Positions 4,243 through 62,394 are shown, numbered from the stretch's first letter. The stretch: DNA of 64,000 nt from Sulfolobales archaeon (GCA_038841535.1 JAWBTQ010000004.1:38271-102270), one strand, 5' to 3'. Notes: a model not told the origin generated them from the sequence alone. Translations and numbers: made by a program.

Positions 4243-4682
4243 CTGACTATGCACTACAACTATATAAACTAACTGGAGCTAGGACTTAAGTATAACAACT
4301 GGGAGTCTATGAGGGTATCCGACAGCCTGTTTAGTGCCATAGGTCGCTGTAGGTTGGCTTATGTGAGTCACGCATTGGCTCTGGGGTTCACAGTAGAGTA
4401 CTAGCTATATCATAGTGGAGTAGTGGCACCAATCGAGCTCAGCAACTATGGGCAGCTCTAAAGTGAGAAAAGGGTTCCTGGGTGTCCCAGGAATACCGCT
4501 ATACATAAAGCTCTTGAATAAGCCACCTTCCAGGCGAAAGGAAAAGAGTCTTCAGAGCAGAAGGATAGTGTCTTAACGCATATCTGCCTCCTTAAATGCG
4601 ATATTTCGACAGTAGCTTACTCTCTTAAGCGAGTGATAACTAAGTTTTAACATATTAACTCACTTGCGAACTACCTAAGTGA

Positions 4683-4733
4683 GTGATGAAGCCGCTCCAA
4701 GAGCAGATCTGTGACGACCTCGCGACGATCTGA
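4683..4733 (+). ncRNA. Candidate C/D box sRNA
   Basis: GTGATGA (C box) - 14 nt - CAGA (D'-like) - TCT - GTGACGA (C'-like) - 12 nt - CTGA (D box), 51 nt in total. It lies in a 1-kb convergent intergenic region. No target was checked. Confidence 0.35.
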
Positions 4734-5136
4734 AAATAACTAACCGGTAACTTCCCGCTGTTTTATTACCCATATCTATTTTAGCCGATTTTTGTTTTCC
4801 TTTATCGTCCTAGGTAGTTCGAGAACAGTTTCGAGTCCAGGACAACGAGTTCTACTTAAGAAATTGTGACCGGTAGAGATAAGTAAGTGGCGTGTACTGG
4901 TAGGACAAAGTCGAACAATTCCGGAAGCAACGCCTTCGTCATACATTCAATATACACGAAAGCCTTGTAGAATTGTTTCTGGTTTGTAGTGATTGATGCT
5001 ACTCTCGGTAATGCGTTAGAGGCACCTATAAACGTCTCTCTATAAAATGAAGCCTCTTGATGAGCGTGCAAGAGCTCGTAGGGGAGCTGAGAATCGGGCT
5101 CCCCCGAGAGCAGCCACTGAAGTCGGTCACACAAAA

Positions 5137-5255
5137 TGTGGGGTGCTAGGGGTCGCCCCGAACGCTCCCGAGCCCGATGAGAACCCGAGCGGGATGCGGG
5201 GGAAGAGGATGAGGAGATGAAACAACAAATACGAACCTATATCAGAGCTGAACCC
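5137..5255 (+). repeat. Intergenic repeat element, copy A (~118 nt)
   Basis: By-eye alignment suggests roughly two-thirds identity to 24524-24645, e.g. GAACGCTCCCGAGCCCGATGAG vs AAACGTTCCCGAGTTCGATGAA and GATGAAACAAC vs GATGAAATCAAC, with AGCTGAACC shared at the 3' end. The termini GGGGT/ACCCC are complementary. Confidence 0.65.
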
Positions 5256-6350
5256 CTATAAAACTACCTCTCCCTCATTCCAAACGCTTTCACTTATCTC
5301 TTTATATGGTAAGATATAATTGCGCTTGTTTATGAACACCTCATCGGCTATGCTCACTTGATCTCCTATTATCGTTCCACTCTCTATTCTAACCCAATTA
5401 CCTATTGAGCAGCTTTCTCCGACTACGGAGTTCTTTATATACGTAGAAAAGCCTATTTTACTACCCTTCATTACGACAGAGCCCCTAACCATAGAAAAGT
5501 CGCCAACTGATACTTGGTCAAGCAAAACGGTGTTTGGTCCTATGATGCTACCTTTACCTACAATAACCTCGTTACCTATGTATGCTGGCCCCACAACTTC
5601 CCCTCGAATATCCGAAGCTCTCGATATGAACCCGCTTGGATAGAGAGTATTGAGTGCGACAATGTTAGCTTTAAGGTAGTCTTCAGGGATGCCTATGTCA
5701 AACCATATTCCCTCGTGAATATACGCATAGACTCTCCCGACCTTCAGCACTTTAGGCATGAGGTCTACGGAGATCTTCTGCTTTTTACCATCATCGACGT
5801 ACTTAAGAATCTCGGGTTCAAATACGTACACACCAGCATTAGCGAGGTTTGACTGAGGTCTATATGTAGGCTTCTCAACGAAGTTTACTACTCTACCTTC
5901 TCCATTGACACTAAGAATTCCGTATCTCTCCGGGCTATCTACTCGCACAGCAGTTAAGGTCATTAAGGCATTCTTGATTTTGTGAAGCTCTACCACCATG
6001 CGCACGTCGACATCCGAAAACACGTCTCCGTAGAGTACGAGAAAGGTCTCACTCAACCCTATCTTTTTGTCTACGAGCTTCAGGGGCCCAGCGTCACCGA
6101 GCGGGTGCTCTTCCTCTACGTACTCTATAGCCACACCTAACTCACCCCCATCTCCCAGGAGGTCAACTATCTGGTTAGACATGTACTTAACGGATATTAT
6201 TAGCTCACGCACACCAGCTTTCTTAAGGCTGTCGATAAGCCAGAGGATTAGAGGTCGTCCGAGGATGGGTAGGAGAGGTTTAGGTCTAGTAAGGGTTAGT
6301 GGCCTCAATCTGGTAGCATAACCACCTGCGAGTAATACGGCCTTCATCAC
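5256..6350 (-). CDS. Sugar-1-phosphate nucleotidyltransferase with C-terminal left-handed beta-helix (hexapeptide repeat) domain
   Basis: N-terminal LLAGGYATRLRPLTLTRPKPLLPI (GGxGTRL-type NTP-transferase signature). The C-terminal part has I/V-G-x repeats (IGNEVIVGKGSIIGPNTVLLD...). Confidence 0.85.
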   Translation of the reverse strand: MMKAVLLAGGYATRLRPLTLTRPKPLLPILGRPLILWLIDSLKKAGVRELIISVKYMSNQIVDLLGDGGELGVAIEYVEEEHPLGDAGPLKLVDKKIGLSETFLVLYGDVFSDVDVRMVVELHKIKNALMTLTAVRVDSPERYGILSVNGEGRVVNFVEKPTYRPQSNLANAGVYVFEPEILKYVDDGKKQKISVDLMPKVLKVGRVYAYIHEGIWFDIGIPEDYLKANIVALNTLYPSGFISRASDIRGEVVGPAYIGNEVIVGKGSIIGPNTVLLDQVSVGDFSMVRGSVVMKGSKIGFSTYIKNSVVGESCSIGNWVRIESGTIIGDQVSIADEVFINKRNYILPYKEISESVWNEGEVVL

Positions 6351-16518: not shown

Positions 16519-16652
16519 TCACCACACACCAGAGAATAATTAGCGGAGAACTTATCAAGGCACGCTTTTGGTTTCTTCCGAGAAAGGCTTAAACGCAAAA
16601 GCCTAAAGCAACTGTTTTGGGTTTTGTGTTATTTTATGTTGCTTGGTAGTTG

Positions 16653-16770
16653 CGTGGAGGTTACTCGATGGGAGATGAGAGCCTCGTAGATGGGGTAAGG
16701 ATTCTCCCCGCGGGTAAACCGAGATTTGGAGGTCTCGGGCATCCCGAGCGCATATCAAAGTTGAACCTCC
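16653..16770 (+). repeat. Intergenic repeat element, copy C (diverged / internally rearranged)
   Basis: Same length class (about 118 nt) and same termini (GTGGAGGT...TGAACCTCC) as copy B. It shares internal blocks (TTGGAGGTCTCGGGCATCCCGAG, GGAGATGAGAGCC), but in a different order. Confidence 0.5.
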
Positions 16771-16805
16771 TACTGAGAGCGGGCAGCGCATCGCTCAAGA
16801 GCGAG

Positions 16806-17264
16806 CTACTTAGTTTCGCTTAATATTTTTTTAACGGCTCTCAGGATGTTTATATATCCTGTACACCTACATATATTCCCGATTAAAGCTCTCTTAACAT
16901 CCTCTATGTTTCTTATCCCTTTGGTGATAGCGGCATATATTGTAGTGAGAAAGCCGGGAGTACAATAACCGCACTGAATAGCTCCTTCCTCAAGCATGGC
17001 GTCTATGATTATCTTGCCTACATGTGTTTGAGCTATATAGTCTGGTGTGACGACCTCGTAACCGTCAACTTTGGCAGCTAATACCAAGCAGGAAGTTACT
17101 GGTTTACCGTTCAAGAGTACGGTACATGAACCGCACTCACCAACGCCACAACCATACTTTACGCTCTTTACCTTCAGCTTGTCCCTTAAGACATTTAAAA
17201 GAGTCTCGTGAGGCTCTACTTCTACTTCAGTGACTACCCCGTTTAGTCTAAACTTGATCTTCAT
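16806..17264 (-). CDS. Molybdenum hydroxylase small subunit, 2x[2Fe-2S] (CoxS/XdhC-small type)
   Basis: GCGVGECGSCTV (plant-type 2Fe-2S) and QCGYCTPG...CRCTGY (second 2Fe-2S). Confidence 0.9.
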   Translation of the reverse strand: MKIKFRLNGVVTEVEVEPHETLLNVLRDKLKVKSVKYGCGVGECGSCTVLLNGKPVTSCLVLAAKVDGYEVVTPDYIAQTHVGKIIIDAMLEEGAIQCGYCTPGFLTTIYAAITKGIRNIEDVKRALIGNICRCTGYINILRAVKKILSETK

Positions 17265-23095: not shown

Positions 23096-24166
23096 ATGAT
23101 TAGCACTAAGTTGATTAAAGCTAGGCTGTCGTCCCTATCATGGCTTCTAATACTTCTAGCACTGATAACTAGCTCTCTCATTGCTTCAGCTAGTTCGAGT
23201 CTTGATAGGCACAGTCCTGATTTTCAGTACCGCTTAACTAGCTATGGTGATGTCTGGACTCAAAACGAGGTCTTGGCTCTTACAGAGGTTTTAAATAGCT
23301 TAAAGCAGTATGGGGTAGCGCATGTCTCTACTGCTGTCCGAGACTCTGGGGAAGTTTTAAACAAGTTGATCAGCAAGTTGCAACTCGTTGACGAGAGGAT
23401 TTCACTAGCTCTAAGAAGCTTGCTAGGTTTATCTAAAGACCTACCCGAGGACCTATCTTCGAGAATAAGTAATGTCTCTATTAGTAGTAAAAACGCAAGT
23501 CGATTGATTAAGGTAATAAACCACCTTTATTCTAATGGAGAGCTAAGCGGTGTTGACTATTTAGTGCTTATAGGACATGTAGCTAACGAGCTCAAAGAAG
23601 GTTACGTTGAAGATTCTGAAACTATTACCAACTTGCGGAGGGCTATTGATGAGATTTCCTCTATTATCACGAAGTCAACAATCCCACCGCTACCGGAGCC
23701 GGATATATCTTCTAGGTATAATGGGGCGGTACTCTTAATTAAACCCATCGAAGTCCCCAAACCTGTCTTGATAGCAATTTTACTTGTCGTGCTCGTCCCT
23801 CCCGCTACACACGCTTCTCTCAGCTTCCGCACGCGTACTTACTACTCTAAGCTTTTACGTAAAGCCCAGCTAACTTCAGACTTAATCGTTTCAAGTCTCA
23901 GTTTCCCTGAGGATACCGTTTCCGCTTACTGGGTAGCAGTAGGCATACTATCTAAAGTAATAACGGTCAATCCATGGGAAACTCATAGAGAGTTTTTAGC
24001 TAGATTAGGAAAAGAACTTAAGAATCAGCAAGTACTGTCCGTCTTTAAAACCCTTACAGAGGAATATGAGAAAGTCCGATTTGCCGGTGAAGTGGGTTCC
24101 CTAAGCCGGAAACAGTTGGTCGATATTGTGGTGTATATAGCAAACGAAGTTCGATATATAGATTGA
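23096..24166 (+). CDS. Membrane protein with DUF4129-like C-terminal domain
   Basis: N-terminal signal/TM (LSWLLILLALITSSLIASA), an internal TM (PVLIAILLVVLVPP), and a C-terminal ETHREFLARLG...LTEEYEKVRFAGE pattern. Confidence 0.55.
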   Translation: MISTKLIKARLSSLSWLLILLALITSSLIASASSSLDRHSPDFQYRLTSYGDVWTQNEVLALTEVLNSLKQYGVAHVSTAVRDSGEVLNKLISKLQLVDERISLALRSLLGLSKDLPEDLSSRISNVSISSKNASRLIKVINHLYSNGELSGVDYLVLIGHVANELKEGYVEDSETITNLRRAIDEISSIITKSTIPPLPEPDISSRYNGAVLLIKPIEVPKPVLIAILLVVLVPPATHASLSFRTRTYYSKLLRKAQLTSDLIVSSLSFPEDTVSAYWVAVGILSKVITVNPWETHREFLARLGKELKNQQVLSVFKTLTEEYEKVRFAGEVGSLSRKQLVDIVVYIANEVRYID

Positions 24167-24315
24167 AGTCCAAAGATTTAAAGAAATTAAACATATTCAA
24201 AGATTGGTGTATTTATTCAATACAACTTTTTCCATATCGTAGGTGATACCATGGCTCCTCTGAAGGCTCAAGAGTAGCGTTCGAGCTAGCGCTGAGGCCC
24301 GGTGGGAGACCACTC

Positions 24316-24489
24316 ATGATGTTAGCTGCTACACTTCTCGGAATAATTGCTGGACTGGTTATCGGTGAGCCGATCACCTCCACTAAGTTCCTAGGAGATA
24401 TATTTCTCTACCTACTTCAATTTGTAGTCGGCCCATTAGTCTTTGTCTCAATAGCGTGGCTATTCAATAAAGGGAAGAGTGTTGCGTAG
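24316..24489 (+). pseudogene. Truncated N-terminal fragment of a dicarboxylate/amino acid:cation symporter (GltP/GltPh family)
   Basis: The 57-codon ORF is MMLAATLLGIIAGLVIGEPITSTKFLGDIFLYLLQFVVGPLVFVSIAWLFNKGKSVA*. It resembles TM1-TM2 of GltPh-type transporters ([21 protein letters not shown]). The rest of the gene is absent. Confidence 0.6.
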
Positions 24490-24523
24490 GTGAGTTGTGG
24501 CTCTCCATGTGAGTGAACCGAGT

Positions 24524-24645
24524 TGTGGAGGTCTCAAGGTGGCCCTAAACGTTCCCGAGTTCGATGAATTTCCGGTCGGAAGGTGGGGGGAGAGATGAGT
24601 CGATGAAATCAACCCATATAGACCAATGCGAAGCTGAACCTCCCT
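24524..24645 (+). repeat. Intergenic repeat element, copy B (~118 nt)
   Basis: See copy A. The termini GGAGGT (24527-24532) and ACCTCC (24637-24642) are complementary. It lies immediately 3' of the gltP-like fragment. Confidence 0.65.
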
Positions 24646-24769
24646 CAGGAGCTTCGCTTATCTACGTGCAATTGTTGCGTCTATATCACTTAGCGTATTC
24701 ACATGAAGCACTCGGGTCAATAAACGTAAAGTTAGGTAGTGGTATCTGGGGCTAGATGGGGATATCAAG

Positions 24770-26044
24770 CTAAGGCTGTGTGTTGGATAAGTGCAGTAGG
24801 TGTACTGAGCATGATATGCACGGGTCATAGCTTCTAACGATCCTCTTAGCGATGTCGATGGCTCTAGTATCAGCACTTGCACCAAAGAGCTTGCTCATTA
24901 TCACATTTTCCATCGAAGCCAGATTTTGAGCTGTTGGAGTCACTATGTTGCTATTTCGAACTCTCAGTTCTCTATCTAAGTTATACCTATGGTATAGGAT
25001 CCCCCTAGGTGCTTCTGTAGCCGCTACGCAAGCACCTCTTGGTGCCGTCCTAGGTTCGGTTCTAGTAACCGACCTCTCTCGATATTCGTCGAAAAACTCC
25101 TTGAGTTCTAAGAGAGTATGGTATGTTTCAGCTATTCGAGCTACTACACTCTGGTAGATGTTCTTGAGGCTCTCTCCGTAGCCATATTCGCTAATTAGCT
25201 CTTTAGCTTCCTCCCTTAAGTACTTGTAGTAGAGATTGTACCTTGCCAGAGGTCCAACAGCGTAGGGCTCTCCAGTTATCAATCTATACCTAAGCGCATT
25301 AGAGTACCCTACCTGCTCAGTGAGTACGAAGTTCTCAAAAGCTTCTACTTTAGCAGAAGAGCCGTCATCAGCAACTACACCACTCCCAACCCACGGGTAC
25401 CGGGTTCCGTTTTCTACAGCCATATACCTTAGCCTATGGACTTCAACCGGTATGCTGCCGAGGTCTAGCACGAACTTAGCTATGTCTATAAAGTCTCTTA
25501 TTACTTTAGGTAGGTCATGCTTAAGTTTTTCGACTTTACTAGCACTCGGGAAACTATATACCCCACCAACACGTATGTTAAGCACGTTATGAAATCTTCC
25601 TCCTAGGGTTTCCATAACCTTTCTAGACCAGAGAACTATTTCTGTACTCTTGCTAAAGATATGTGAATAGCTTTCCGAAAGCTCTTTCAGAGAGCCGATC
25701 TCGAGAAAGTCCGGTAAGTGGAGAAGAGCTACGTGAATAACGTGGCTCTTAACTCTTTCTGCTGCTAATACTGCTAGCCTCAGCCTTTCTTCATCTTCCG
25801 GCACCTCTATAGATAGGCAGTTCTCGAAGGCTTTAGAAGCGGTGAGAGCGTACGAAACACCGCACAGTCCGCATATTCTACTAGTTAGGTCCGGGACCTC
25901 AAAGCACCTCCTTCCCCTAACTATGTACTCGAAGAATCTCGGTGCTTCAGTTATCTTAATTTCGACGCTAGTTACTCTACCGTCAGAAGACTTAAGCACT
26001 ACCTGACCTTCTCCTTCAACTCGAGTTAGAAGTCCGGACAGCAT
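24770..26044 (-). CDS. [NiFe] hydrogenase large (alpha) subunit, group 3b sulfhydrogenase-like
   Basis: N-terminal RICGLCG and C-terminal DPCISCSVH metal-binding motifs, with a 9-aa C-terminal extension. The operon order and sizes match the Pyrococcus-type beta-gamma-delta-alpha arrangement. Confidence 0.9.
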   Translation of the reverse strand: MLSGLLTRVEGEGQVVLKSSDGRVTSVEIKITEAPRFFEYIVRGRRCFEVPDLTSRICGLCGVSYALTASKAFENCLSIEVPEDEERLRLAVLAAERVKSHVIHVALLHLPDFLEIGSLKELSESYSHIFSKSTEIVLWSRKVMETLGGRFHNVLNIRVGGVYSFPSASKVEKLKHDLPKVIRDFIDIAKFVLDLGSIPVEVHRLRYMAVENGTRYPWVGSGVVADDGSSAKVEAFENFVLTEQVGYSNALRYRLITGEPYAVGPLARYNLYYKYLREEAKELISEYGYGESLKNIYQSVVARIAETYHTLLELKEFFDEYRERSVTRTEPRTAPRGACVAATEAPRGILYHRYNLDRELRVRNSNIVTPTAQNLASMENVIMSKLFGASADTRAIDIAKRIVRSYDPCISCSVHLLHLSNTQP

Positions 26045-34488: not shown

Positions 34489-35385
34489 CTATACCTTGGG
34501 GAAGAAGTACTTGCACCTACACGCCTTATTTCTAACACACCTTCCTAAGACTACCTCCGATATCCTAGAGGTTAAGTACTTGATGTTTCTACAGATTTCG
34601 TTTCGACACTCTGTTTCTCCCAACAAGCTGAGGACCTTGATCACGCTGTTGACAGCTGTTTCAACGTCTTGAACTAGGGTAGCACTTATAGCCGCTCTCG
34701 ACAGCTCTAGGACTCTCGACAGCTCTACGTCTTCGCTTAGCTTAGGTTGCTCGACTCCTACTAAGATGTCGAAGAGCTCCTTGATGTACTCAATTGATAC
34801 GGCTAGGTCTAGAGCTTCGTAGGGGTCTATAGAGCCGTCGGCAACACCCTGCTTTATGGTTCTAAGGAAGTACAGGTACTTTCTGTAGAACTCTCTGTAT
34901 GTAGCGGGAGTAGAGGGGTTTCTCTCTTCAACGCAGTCTATGAGCTTGCTAGAGGTAGCTTCGATGGTTTTTAAGAGCGAGAGGAGGTCTGTCTTTACGT
35001 CAGAAAAAACTAGTTCGTGGATATTCGAACCCGGGTTAGCCATGAGGACGAAGCTCGTTACATAGTCCTTAAGGCTCTCAGAGAGCTCTAGAGACTGCTC
35101 ATAGCTCGACTTTATCTTAACTCTCGTTACTCCCTCTACGTAGGAGGCAACTAGCTTCCTAATTGCTAGGTCGCTAGACTCGTACTCTATTAAGACGTTG
35201 ACTTCCTCGCTTTGCTCACTACTCGAAGATGGAACTACAGTTATCTTAGAGCCATCGAAGTAGAGGCTAACTCTATCTCCAGGTTTAATACCTAGAGCGT
35301 CAGCCCACCTCTTCGGCACTATTATAGATAGAGAACCCTTACCAACCACGTTCACTTTCTTGACTAAGCGCTCAGACATCTGCAC
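34489..35385 (-). CDS. AbrB/SpoVT-domain + PhoU-like domain transcriptional regulator
   Basis: N-terminal swapped-hairpin pattern VGKGSLSIIVPKRWADALGIKPGDRVSLYFDGSKITVVP, followed by a helical PhoU-like repeat region. The likely start is ATG at 35379 or GTG at 35385. Confidence 0.75.
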   Translation of the reverse strand: MQMSERLVKKVNVVGKGSLSIIVPKRWADALGIKPGDRVSLYFDGSKITVVPSSSSEQSEEVNVLIEYESSDLAIRKLVASYVEGVTRVKIKSSYEQSLELSESLKDYVTSFVLMANPGSNIHELVFSDVKTDLLSLLKTIEATSSKLIDCVEERNPSTPATYREFYRKYLYFLRTIKQGVADGSIDPYEALDLAVSIEYIKELFDILVGVEQPKLSEDVELSRVLELSRAAISATLVQDVETAVNSVIKVLSLLGETECRNEICRNIKYLTSRISEVVLGRCVRNKACRCKYFFPKV

Positions 35386-36075
35386 TCCGAGATTACGTGT
35401 CTTAATTACTTATAAGTAACACTAGCTACCTCAAAGCTAGCTAAGCCTTCGAGTACCACACTCATAGCACGCTCCAGCGACCAATCGATAGTTCAACTAG
35501 TAGCCTAACCCGTTTAGGAACACGAACTACATAAGCTACTATACCGATGACCTAGCTCAAAACAAGCCTTCACCAACTAGTCAGAGCATACCGAGACATC
35601 AACTAACCGAGAAACTACCTAAATAACGCACTGAGTTCGATACTCAAACCTAATGAAGCTTCAGCGAACTCATTTAACTAAGAGCAGTGAGAACTGAATT
35701 AGTCTGAGTGCACGAGTAGATAGAGTAGGATACCGCGAATTAAGCCGAGCAATCAGTTAAGCAGTATGCTGACGACCCTATACAGCAATAACTGAAAGAA
35801 ACGAATACGTTAGAGAAGCAAACAACTTTAGAAAACAGAGCCTCTAGCTAGATACAGCAACAACAGTACTTCTTCAAGCTGATGCGAGTTAATCAGCTAA
35901 CAGGTTTGAGGGCATCACTATCTGAGTTCATGGAGTTAGGGAGAGACCGTGAGCTTGGGTTAACTTTACCAAAGTGTAGTTAAGCTCGGGTTAACTACGC
36001 CATTGGACTCTAGGGACCTAGCAGCGGTCTTGACCACCGCGAGTGGGCTAGGCAACTCCATCAGTTAATTAAACT

Positions 36076-36091
36076 TCCATCAGCTGATGGA
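36076..36091. repeat. 16-bp perfect palindrome TCCATCAGCTGATGGA
   Basis: Read directly from the sequence. An extra upstream half-site CTCCATCAG (36056-36064) can pair with CTGATGGAG (36084-92). Confidence 0.8.
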
Positions 36092-36417
36092 GTACTGCTA
36101 TTCTCAAGGATTTCTAGTGATGACCTGATTCTAGTAGTAAGATAGTATCGCAACTTGGGGTGTAGTTCAGCTACTCAATAAGTCGCTGAGTTAGTCGCCC
36201 GCTCAAATTCGGGAGCGGCGTGGGCGTTCAGGAGTCCGTGGATTGCTTAGTGCTCTAGTTCTATACTCATAGAGTACTAGAGTATTGAGAGCTTCACGCA
36301 GTGATCTCTGCCGTAGTCTAAGCTAAAGCTCTTAGCGCTCTCCACGTCTGTGCTCACCCGGAGAAGTCTCCAGCACCTTCGGCTCTCCTCAATAATCTAG
36401 AGCTTTTTCACTCTACT

Positions 36418-36936
36418 TCACGCTTCTTCGCGAGGTTCCTTTAGCAGGCTCTTCGCAGGGTAGATGACTGGGCCGAAGCAGAGTAAAAAACCGAAGGCTT
36501 CGAGAGACAGGGTGCCTGGGCAATCACTCCTCGCATACTTACTGAGCTCAGCCCTCACTCTGCTGAGTATTTCCCCACCTATAGACCCAGCTCTCGGGAT
36601 CCTAACCCTGCTAAAGCAAGCTTGCTCGACAGTACTACCTACTACGTAGTCTACTACGTAATCTAGTGAAGCGTTGTAGCAACTGATGCAGGACAGTACG
36701 TAGGTTACGTACTCGACTGCCGAGAAGTAGTGCCTGGTGAGGAGGTCCCTCATGAACTCTGGAGACTGAGAGCTCTTGATTACAGCAACTCCCCCGATGT
36801 CCGGGAGAAAGACCTCTACGGAGTTGTCGTAGGGGTAAATAGTGTCACCTAGCTCTAGAGAGGCTCTCTCTTCTTTGGAGTAGCGGCTAGTAGCTACATA
36901 GGTATACTTACGCATAGAACAAGGACAGCACACCAT
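36418..36936 (-). CDS. Hypothetical protein (possibly a THUMP-like RNA-binding fold)
   Basis: 172-aa ORF with good coding appearance. The THUMP suggestion rests only on a loose pattern (VEVFLPDIGGVAVIK...SRVRIPRAGSIGGE). Confidence 0.4.
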   Translation of the reverse strand: MVCCPCSMRKYTYVATSRYSKEERASLELGDTIYPYDNSVEVFLPDIGGVAVIKSSQSPEFMRDLLTRHYFSAVEYVTYVLSCISCYNASLDYVVDYVVGSTVEQACFSRVRIPRAGSIGGEILSRVRAELSKYARSDCPGTLSLEAFGFLLCFGPVIYPAKSLLKEPREEA

Positions 36937-38629: not shown

Positions 38630-38721
38630 GCCGCGGTAGTATAGCCCGGTCAAGTATGCGGGCCTCTCGTGCTCGTCGGGGTGAGCCCGTGACCCGGGTT
38701 CAAATCCCGGCCGCGGCACCA
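38630..38721 (+). tRNA. tRNA-Glu (anticodon CUC) with a 14-nt intron at the canonical 37/38 position; CCA encoded
   Basis: Acceptor GCCGCGG/CCGCGGC, T-arm CCGGGTTCAAATCCCGG, anticodon stem CGGGC/GCCCG, loop CU-CUC-G[intron 38670-38683 TGCTCGTCGGGGTG]A. Confidence 0.85.
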
Positions 38722-39387: not shown

Positions 39388-39720
39388 CTGCCCACAGATA
39401 ACTTCGGATCGTTCACATAAATCCTTTTATATGTGGAGACTATTTACCCTAATACACAACGACCTCGAAACAGCGGTTTCTGCCCTGCGACCTCCGCTGC
39501 CACACCTTAACACTACGTCGTGGAACAAGTCCCGGAGTGTTCTCAGAAAATCCGAGCATTGAGAGTTAACGAGGTTTTGCACGCCACTCTACGTAAAGCT
39601 GTTGGGTAGAGGTCGCTACACGAGAGCATGCCACAGATTCCCACTACGTAATGTAGCTCGGTTGGTTAAGGGTTATAGCTTATCAACTCTAGCGATGCCA
39701 GGTTTGTTGCGGTGTAGGCG

Positions 39721-55098: not shown

Positions 55099-55157
55099 TG
55101 TGAGGAGGATTCGGGTAAACCGCGGAGAACATCCATATGGTGACATTGATTAACCTA
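55099..55157 (+). repeat. Possible short or degenerate copy of the intergenic repeat family
   Basis: TGTGAGGAGGATTCGGGTAAACCGCGG resembles blocks in copy C (AAGGATTCTCCCCGCGGGTAAACCG) and the family 5' end TGTGGAGG. Weak. Confidence 0.3.
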
Positions 55158-55302
55158 TGACGTAGACAGTTTCAGTATTCAGCTAGGTCGCTGTGTTGTG
55201 GTGTCAGTAGAGCAAGGCGGGAACAAGTGCTTTAACTGAATAGACTGCACGAGCGACTAATTCGGGTTATTACTTAAAAGTACTCACTTCCTTAGGTCTT
55301 CA

Positions 55303-62310: not shown

Positions 62311-62394
62311 TCCCGCCGGGGGGATTCGAACCCCCGACCACCCGGTATCGGCCCCACACTACAGCCGGGCGCTCTGCCGCTGAGCTACGGCGGG
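62311..62394 (-). tRNA. tRNA-Tyr (anticodon GUA) with a 12-nt intron at 37/38; no encoded CCA
   Basis: The reverse complement is CCCGCCG-TA-GCTCAGCGGCAGAGC-G-CCCGG-CTGTAG[TGTGGGGCCGAT]A-CCGGG-TGGTC-GGGGGTTCGAATCCCCC-CGGCGGG-A. The C1:G72 pair is typical of archaeal tRNA-Tyr. Confidence 0.9.

Follow-up and report, generated by a model that had tools for sequence, protein, structure and literature searches.

Positions 5137-5255 of a 64,000-nt stretch of DNA from a Sulfolobales archaeon (GCA_038841535.1, JAWBTQ010000004.1:38271-102270; hereafter the window) contain a sequence of ~118 nt that recurs between genes, and the question raised by this locus was whether the repeat is an RNA gene or a piece of mobile DNA. 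The window is part of a hot-spring archaeal MAG, and identical sequence was found in several assemblies named "Sulfolobales archaeon" and in the Jinze spring metagenomes. A first-pass annotation had described three related copies, termed A, B and C, and had read them either as structured small RNAs closed by a terminal helix or as MITE-like elements with short terminal inverted repeats (TIRs). Both readings were partly right, as the copies are gene-less, dispersed transposon derivatives that carry an omega-RNA scaffold as judged by homology, but the terminal helix was not supported and neither TIRs nor target-site duplications were found. We conclude with high confidence that all three copies derive by internal deletion from a tnpB-only transposon of the IS200/IS605 family (IS1341-like) and are non-autonomous. 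The ~118-base repeat represents the right end of a TnpB-type, guide-RNA-carrying archaeal transposon that stands without its nuclease gene. In TnpB systems this region encodes the omega-RNA (reRNA) scaffold, to which the 118 nt are assigned here by homology. The copies belong to a known type of mobile DNA, omega-RNA-bearing PATE-like elements having been described already, and are not a new class of structured RNA. New here are the archaeal family, which is abundant in hot-spring Thermoproteota (including Sulfolobales- and Desulfurococcaceae-type MAGs), its absence from Rfam and its candidate GCC target.

Copies of the element in the window

Copies A and B were homologous over 119 nt (70% identity, E = 3.6e-12, blastn), as had been claimed, and nhmmer gave the same result. 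Copy C was related to both, but its internal blocks were not permuted as had been thought: only 16714-16739 and 16751-16771 matched the A/B core in nhmmer. A further ~60 nt of C matched the stretch upstream of B, with 70% identity to B 24474-24535 (blastn). The GGAGGT at 16656-16661, taken earlier for the 5' terminus of C, belongs to what remains of the tnpB start region and is not homologous to the 5' end of A and B; the true homologue of that end is the GGAGGT at 16728-16733. The length of 118 nt was an underestimate, since the unit extends over 4965-5256 in A and 16604-16770 in C, while B ends at 24643 rather than at 24645 and is truncated on its 5' side at ~24474. Five supposed fragments of the element (908-940, 55099-55157, 55193-55230, 36190-36240 and 39480-39530) went undetected, none being significant (E above 0.1) in searches with blastn, the A/B nhmmer profile and a profile of the full-length element. 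No other remnant of the element and no intact tnpB was found within the 64-kb window.

The window-type copies keep three pieces of the parent, namely ~45 nt of the left end (LE), the tnpB promoter with ~17-20 codons, and the last ~126-132 nt (Table 1). In copy A, the alignment of the left end with other units begins at AAGCCT. The second piece of A contains the TATA-like sequences CCTATAAACG and CTATAAAATG and also matched L178 292-356, a stretch that spans the tnpB start of L178 (blastn); its position and the TATA-like sequences suggest a promoter role. The right end (RE) of A, which includes 5137-5255, shared 85-89% identity with full-length elements at their 3' ends (blastn), and the ancestral tnpB stop codon TGA lies at 5249-5251. 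The right end of B was diverged (70-74% identity to full-length elements), and that of C retained only its first ~20 nt and last ~20 nt. Copy C was fixed in ten assemblies of the species, and the same site lacked the copy in a relative with 74% protein identity. Copy B, which lacks a left end, and copy C, whose core is mostly gone, are probably dead relics.

Table 1. Positions of the element remnants and neighbouring features in the window
Feature	Position	Strand	Evidence
A, target trinucleotide GCC directly 5' of the left end (candidate TAM)	4962..4964	+	Full-length profile match; family left flanks
A, left-end (LE) remnant	4965..5010	+	Full-length profile 4954-5005, weak alone (E = 0.97)
A, remnant of the putative tnpB promoter region and first ~20 tnpB codons	5019..5116	+	nhmmer, full-length profile positions 262-376, E = 0.047
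A, right end: last ~43 tnpB codons (frameshifted) and terminal ACCCC	5127..5256	+	Full-length profile, E = 1.5e-34
A, local hairpin GGGGTGC-UAGGGGU-CGCCCC	5140..5159	+	Only helix with covariation support
A, flanking 20 nt, would-be guide if an omega-RNA is made	5257..5276	+	Predicted from TnpB/omega-RNA architecture
C, target GCC	16601..16603	+	Full-length profile; family left flanks
C, left-end remnant	16604..16652	+	Full-length profile 16590-16644 (E = 0.048); blastn to LE of full-length elements
C, remnant of tnpB start and first codons	16653..16721	+	Aligned with L127a, L126a and A
C, right end, core mostly deleted, ending AAGTTGAACCTCC	16722..16770	+	nhmmer 16714-16739 and 16751-16771
B, context: SDF transporter gene, N-terminal 57 codons only	24316..24489	+	Pfam SDF match on the 57-aa product; blastn
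B, partial remnant of tnpB 5' codons, left-truncated, no LE	24474..24523	+	Homologous to C from 24474 onward
B, right end and omega-RNA scaffold region (by homology), ending AAGCTGAACCTCC	24524..24643	+	Full-length profile, E = 5.8e-17

The last C of copy A (5256) is the first + strand base of the TAG stop (5256-5258) of a convergent NTP-transferase gene (5256-6350), so that the insertion abuts, or supplies, the stop codon of that gene. Any read-through guide from A would run antisense to the 3' end of this gene. Two stretches of the window, 4243-4960 (~0.7 kb) and 35385-36418 (~1 kb), held no ORF of at least 80 aa except a doubtful one of 92 aa (4856-5134), which extends across the end of the first stretch. 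Neither stretch had an Rfam match at the gathering threshold, and the full-length profile gave in them only the weak match at 4954-5005 that marks the left end of A and touches just the last few bases of the first stretch.

The parent gene and the full-length element

A family pattern was fitted to all long copies, had no other local match, and was then run on a metagenome collection. It fixes 25 core positions, so that the resulting sample is biased, with conservation inflated and covariation tests limited. Matches were found in at least 120 hot-spring metagenome contigs, with 120 distinct cores and ~100 distinct 3' flanks among the matches listed. Another pattern, GATGAAAN{18,28}AGYTGAACCYCC, proved too loose when run over genome contigs and was discarded, since it gave chance matches only, in unrelated bacteria.

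In at least 19 contigs, the ~122-nt core formed the 3' end (the last ~43 codons, with 6 nt beyond them) of an ORF of 407-465 aa on the same strand. This ORF stopped 6-13 nt before the end of the element (19 loci), and its start lay 1107-1143 nt upstream of the core in most of the 19 contigs and 1224 nt upstream in a subfamily with products of 444-465 aa. The ORF was identified as TnpB by its match to NCBIfam NF040570 (RNA-guided endonuclease TnpB, 106.1 bits against a cut-off of 100) and to Pfam PF07282 (Cas12f1-like_TNB, 1.6e-16), and its best PDB matches were Cas12f and TnpB. There were 542 homologues at E <= 1e-40. Many of the 120 listed were named "RNA-guided endonuclease TnpB family protein" or "IS200/IS605 family accessory protein TnpB-related protein" by NCBI, and others just "zinc ribbon domain-containing protein"; the listed homologues came from MAGs labelled Sulfolobales, Desulfurococcaceae, Ignisphaera, Zestosphaera, Thermofilaceae, Nezhaarchaeales and Bathyarchaeia. 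The TnpB C-terminal sequence ...RCGVPGVALNAPKPNENPSGMRG... agreed with the reading frame through A and B, and the frame of the C-terminal ...RCGVPGVALNAPKPNENPSGMRGNKDE...* runs through A as KCGVLGVAPNAPEPDENPSGMRG, and likewise through B.

The full element measured ~1.5 kb and was arranged in the order target GCC, left end, small ORF on the opposite strand, divergent promoter, tnpB and right end. The tnpB gene encoded ~400-417 aa (up to 465 by the ORF finder in one subfamily), and the right end finished with ...GAGCTGAACCCC, the tnpB stop lying 6 nt before this end. No tnpA was found inside the full-length element. The small ORF of 47-55 aa opposite tnpB, which is placed after the left end and ahead of the tnpB promoter (e.g., MAKFIYARCSVIKFRGGTVVLYPLAKYQPEVKPLYGKRVHVVIIAEE), was conserved; it was located at 394-537 in both L253 and L252 and was present in the full-length elements of L141-L248. 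It had no Pfam match, and the short copies do not carry it. An intact tnpB was also sought for the genome of the window itself, and the one demonstrated was in a sister MAG (GCA_038831605.1), where an intact element lay on the same contig as short copies.

Short derivatives of the element

Alignment of units from relatives defined a common short element of ~170-295 nt, which starts with GCC followed by YY..CTGTTT.., has a ~60-nt module as well as a TATA-like box in its interior, and finishes with the same GAGCTGAACCCC; the 118 nt noticed originally are only the right-hand part of it. The short copies mapped onto the left end, the promoter with the 5' codons, and the last ~126-132 nt of the full-length elements. 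By the spacing between left end and core, the copies fell into four classes, of 78-82 nt (~37 copies), 93-129 nt (6 copies), 136-164 nt (~27 copies) and 1338-1391 nt (16 copies), the last being full length, which gave 70 short against 16 full-length copies. Deletion derivatives occurred in at least two subfamilies with differing junctions, and every one of them retained at least 126 nt of the right end. The TnpA of IS608 should need less than 126 nt of right end. The differing deletion junctions, the retained right end and the ratio of 70 to 16 are hints that the short copies may be selected "guide-only" mini-elements, with a promoter and a complete omega-RNA scaffold, and not mere decaying relics, a reading that is possible but that we hold to be unlikely on balance. 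If it were true, TnpB from a full-length element elsewhere would protect or re-copy the short copies, and these would be hyper-parasites of a TnpB homing system.

Insertion 3' of GCC without target duplication

The hydrogenase locus was retrieved for relatives with protein identities of 96%, 84% and 74%, and the 96% relatives were found to bear new copies where the window has an empty site. The window and L127 were tried as a filled/empty pair and rejected, since they are too diverged (78% identity, with indels) for the junction to be placed, and near-identical genomes were used instead. Five exact pairs were obtained in this way: L127b vs L128, L136 vs L177, L173 vs L143, L177 vs L202 and L136, and a reverse-oriented relative in L127/L128 vs L126. 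In all five the empty site had the form [..GCC][right flank], with the insertion precisely 3' of GCC and no duplication, so that the target-site duplications expected of a MITE-like element were absent. The reverse-oriented relative (~280 nt; L127 and L128 11269-11599), missing from the otherwise identical L126 site, belongs to another subfamily, with the left end CCTTGCGCAACTGTTTCAGTTTTCATATAAG... and the right end ...GAAATCCGAACCCC.

Analysis of 67 independent left flanks showed that G, C and C were invariant at -3 to -1 and that -4 was never G, and GCC was still present in the empty sites. GCC is therefore a candidate TAM; it has 3 nt, compared with 4-5 nt in characterised TnpBs. The ends of the element, GCC followed by YYNNCGYAGCTGTTT... 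and ...GAGCTGAACCCC, were not complementary and formed no terminal inverted repeats. On the right side, conservation fell from ~0.9 to ~0.3 directly after ACCCC, beyond which ~100 different flanks followed among the matches listed. Precise insertion 3' of GCC, without duplication and without TIRs, is the signature of the IS200/IS605 family, as described for "peel-and-paste" transposition (10.1101/2023.03.14.532601). Presence/absence polymorphism between close genomes showed that the elements are mobile, although data of this kind do not name the mobilising enzyme. The elements could be moved by peel-and-paste with a Y1 TnpA supplied in trans.

Both ends carried AT-rich subterminal palindromes (left, ATATA-GGTT-TATAT; right, ATATA-AACC-TATAT), which were weak in the window-type copies. 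In the consensus ends of the family, these two palindromes are reverse complements of one another. IS608-type elements usually have hairpins in the same orientation, and the palindromes of this family differ in this respect. For the left end, RNAalifold gave no prediction, and the palindromes showed no covariation.

Constraint and structure in the right end

Conservation at third codon positions in the parent gene was 0.80 in the last 43 codons and 0.54 in the body, and the value for the tail was still 0.77 when the positions fixed by the pattern were masked. This excess points to constraint at the nucleic-acid level on the tail of tnpB, as expected for an omega-RNA scaffold and a transposon end. 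The structure was analysed in an alignment of 119 copies, whose mean column identity of 80% is that of a pattern-collected sample. A single helix showed compensatory change, a hairpin of the form GGGGNN-loop-NNCCCY in columns 17-24 with 29-38 (Table 1). Pair 21/34 was CG in 48 copies, UG in 41, UA in 12, GC in 8 and AU in 5; pair 22/33 was CG in 78, GC in 26, UG in 11 and UA in 3; and 98% of the hairpin cells were paired overall. A second helix, columns 54-57 with 72-76, was paired in 77% of cells, with a register that varied by subfamily.

The covariance analysis of these 119 copies supported this one local hairpin and gave nothing for the terminal helix proposed earlier. The complementary letters at the two termini do exist, but the 5' GGGG is the 5' strand of the local covarying hairpin and is internal to the unit. 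The 3' CCCC was nearly invariant (column 144 was C in 116 of the 119 copies), and across the family the terminal helix comprised three invariant G-C pairs, its outer pairs being unpaired in ~90% of copies. The compensatory change noticed earlier, a paired G>A / C>U, was real in the lineage of B (two near-identical rows of the 119), but it represents a single lineage event; the change to A stood uncompensated in two other lineages, and the U occurred alone in one lineage. The short copy C, which is outside the 119-copy alignment, has the GGAGGT/ACCTCC variant of B. The terminal GGAGGT/ACCTCC helix is not supported. The candidate partners of the 3' CCCC, all of them invariant columns, were the internal GGGGG (columns 82-86), the GGGG of the hairpin loop and the 5' GGGG of the proposed helix; the 3' CCCC may pair with the internal GGGGG, with the hairpin loop as a pseudoknot, or with nothing.

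The GATGA motifs, earlier suspected to be K-turn elements, are indeed present; read in frame, however, they encode Asp-Glu in the tail of TnpB, and CTGA includes TGA, the stop codon of tnpB. Readings of GATGA and CTGA as C/D, H/ACA or K-turn motifs were dropped, the Rfam search being blank and the motifs being codons and a stop. The Rfam scan of the window at gathering thresholds found two tRNAs only, a tRNA-Glu (38630-38721, 92 nt) and a tRNA-Tyr (62311-62394, 84 nt), both of which exceed the standard length, consistent with archaeal introns. The statement that the repeat is not of a known family held for Rfam, where there was no match even at E up to 10, the lowest E values of a permissive scan being 8 on A and 4 on the full-length L162 right end; it failed for the parent, which is a gene of the TnpB family. 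RNAfold gave z-scores of 0 to +1.5 for A and B on both strands, showing no stability beyond that of shuffled sequence. In three metatranscriptomes of the same study, of which 3-5% of the reads were sampled and in which host reads were nearly lacking, 0 reads fell on B and 22 on 20 kb. Copy A may still be transcribed from its retained promoter, which would yield an omega-RNA usable by TnpB made elsewhere.

Alternative explanations

The copies might be independent genes of ~118 nt for structured small RNAs, with a GGAGGU/ACCUCC terminal helix, GAUGA K-turns and a cellular role unrelated to transposons. The complementary termini of A, B and C, with the paired variant in B and C, the high conservation of the core and the TATA-like box upstream in the short units would fit such genes. 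However, the core is the 3' end of tnpB at no fewer than 19 loci, and this linkage by itself already largely refutes the idea. The 5' arm is taken up by the covarying hairpin, the pairs of the supposed helix are either invariant (three) or mostly unpaired, with an uncompensated A.C in two lineages, and the K-turn motifs resolve into Asp-Glu codons and the tnpB stop. The absence of any unusual folding stability and the blank Rfam result, C/D and H/ACA families included, also speak against a small-RNA gene, which we regard as very unlikely. Equally short, non-coding and dispersed, and present or absent among close genomes, would be a classical MITE that moves by cut-and-paste with short TIRs and a DDE transposase and leaves flanking target-site duplications, and GGAGGT/ACCTCC can be read as inverted repeats. 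Such an element is extremely improbable here, as the true ends are not inverted repeats, the 5' arm of the presumed repeat lies inside the unit, duplications are absent from all five exact filled/empty pairs, and the parent codes for TnpB and not for a DDE transposase.

The copies might also be genes for small proteins, given that ORFs of 57 aa (5047-5220 and 16650-16823) and 33 aa (24497-24598) lie over A, B and C and keep one frame across the common block, and that genes of 58 aa and 67 aa are predicted over copies in relatives. The shared frame is, however, the ancestral tnpB frame. It is interrupted by 1-nt indels between copies (L126a vs L127a; A vs the consensus) and ends at stops in differing places, and the mismatches between A and B, counted by eye on the nhmmer alignment, are spread as 6/8/9 over the codon positions. 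The products had no Pfam match, and the ORF of B was left uncalled in six assemblies, so that we give small-protein genes next to no credence.

Comparison with known elements

The MITEs SM1-SM4 of Sulfolobus solfataricus have TIRs, target duplications and DDE transposases. The copies in the window resemble them in being short, dispersed and non-coding and in their presence/absence polymorphism, but have neither TIRs nor target duplications. SMN1 of Sulfolobus islandicus (Berkner and Lipps 2007) is reportedly a short non-autonomous element without inverted repeats and with an IS200/IS605-type parent; it is likened to the family of the window by this description and not by sequence.

The closest counterparts are PATE-like IS200/IS605 elements without genes, whose encoded omega-RNAs are acted upon in trans (10.1101/2023.03.14.532601), palindrome-associated derivatives noted in Geobacillus stearothermophilus by Meers et al. 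in the same work. Like these, the copies in the window are short, have no protein-coding gene and preserve the two ends of an IS that encodes TnpB, among them the right end with its omega-RNA region; both would need TnpA and TnpB in trans, and both families insert 3' of a short motif without duplication. The family of the window differs in being archaeal (hot-spring Thermoproteota), in its end sequences and in its target, which is GCC only. Copies of the window type also keep the tnpB promoter and first codons, and their RNA and its activity are predicted here.

In archaea, SisTnpB1 of Sulfolobus islandicus uses an omega-RNA derived from the right end and the TAM TTTAA (10.1101/2023.03.06.531077), and omega-RNAs have been reported to be expressed in archaea (PMC12558985). 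As in the omega-RNA systems of ISDra2 and SisTnpB1, the predicted scaffold of the window family overlaps the 3' end of tnpB and stops at the right end, and the guide would come from the flank. Common to TnpB omega-RNA systems and this family is also the extra nucleic-acid-level constraint on the tnpB tail, and the parent reaches the NCBIfam cut-off for TnpB. The differences from ISDra2 and SisTnpB1 are that the candidate TAM is GCC, not TTTAA or TTGAT, that the right end is unrelated to any Rfam family and has one helix of its fold supported, and that in the copies of the window the RNA region stands without a nuclease gene.

The puzzle of an unknown RNA family is thus answered by transposon debris, and a hunt for a new structured RNA is spared. 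The identification is also of value for annotation, since these elements pepper hot-spring archaeal MAGs, with 3 copies in the 64-kb window, another 3 in a sister locus of 21 kb and no fewer than 100 sites across metagenomes, and gene callers make spurious small ORFs of the copies. The parent represents a thermophilic TnpB family with a sharply bounded right end, a very short candidate TAM (GCC) and a conserved small ORF inside, which may be of interest for the mining of compact thermostable RNA-guided nucleases.

Deletions of host genes beside the copies

Two regions showed losses of host genes next to copies of the element. L126 lacks an amidohydrolase gene that is flanked by two direct copies in L127/L128 (L126 17010-17600 vs L127 17300-19540). 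The single copy in L126 is a hybrid of the left flank of one and the right flank of the other, which indicates that the host gene was deleted by recombination between the copies. Beside copy B, ~3.5 kb that relatives possess is lost, comprising the remainder of the SDF gene, a gene for 399 aa and an asparaginase gene (gene order of L126-L129). This deletion, located in the region 24166-24770 of the window, ends at the 5'-truncated B, and homology to the SDF gene of relatives ends at 24459. Host deletions beside the copies may have arisen by recombination or deletion at the copies.
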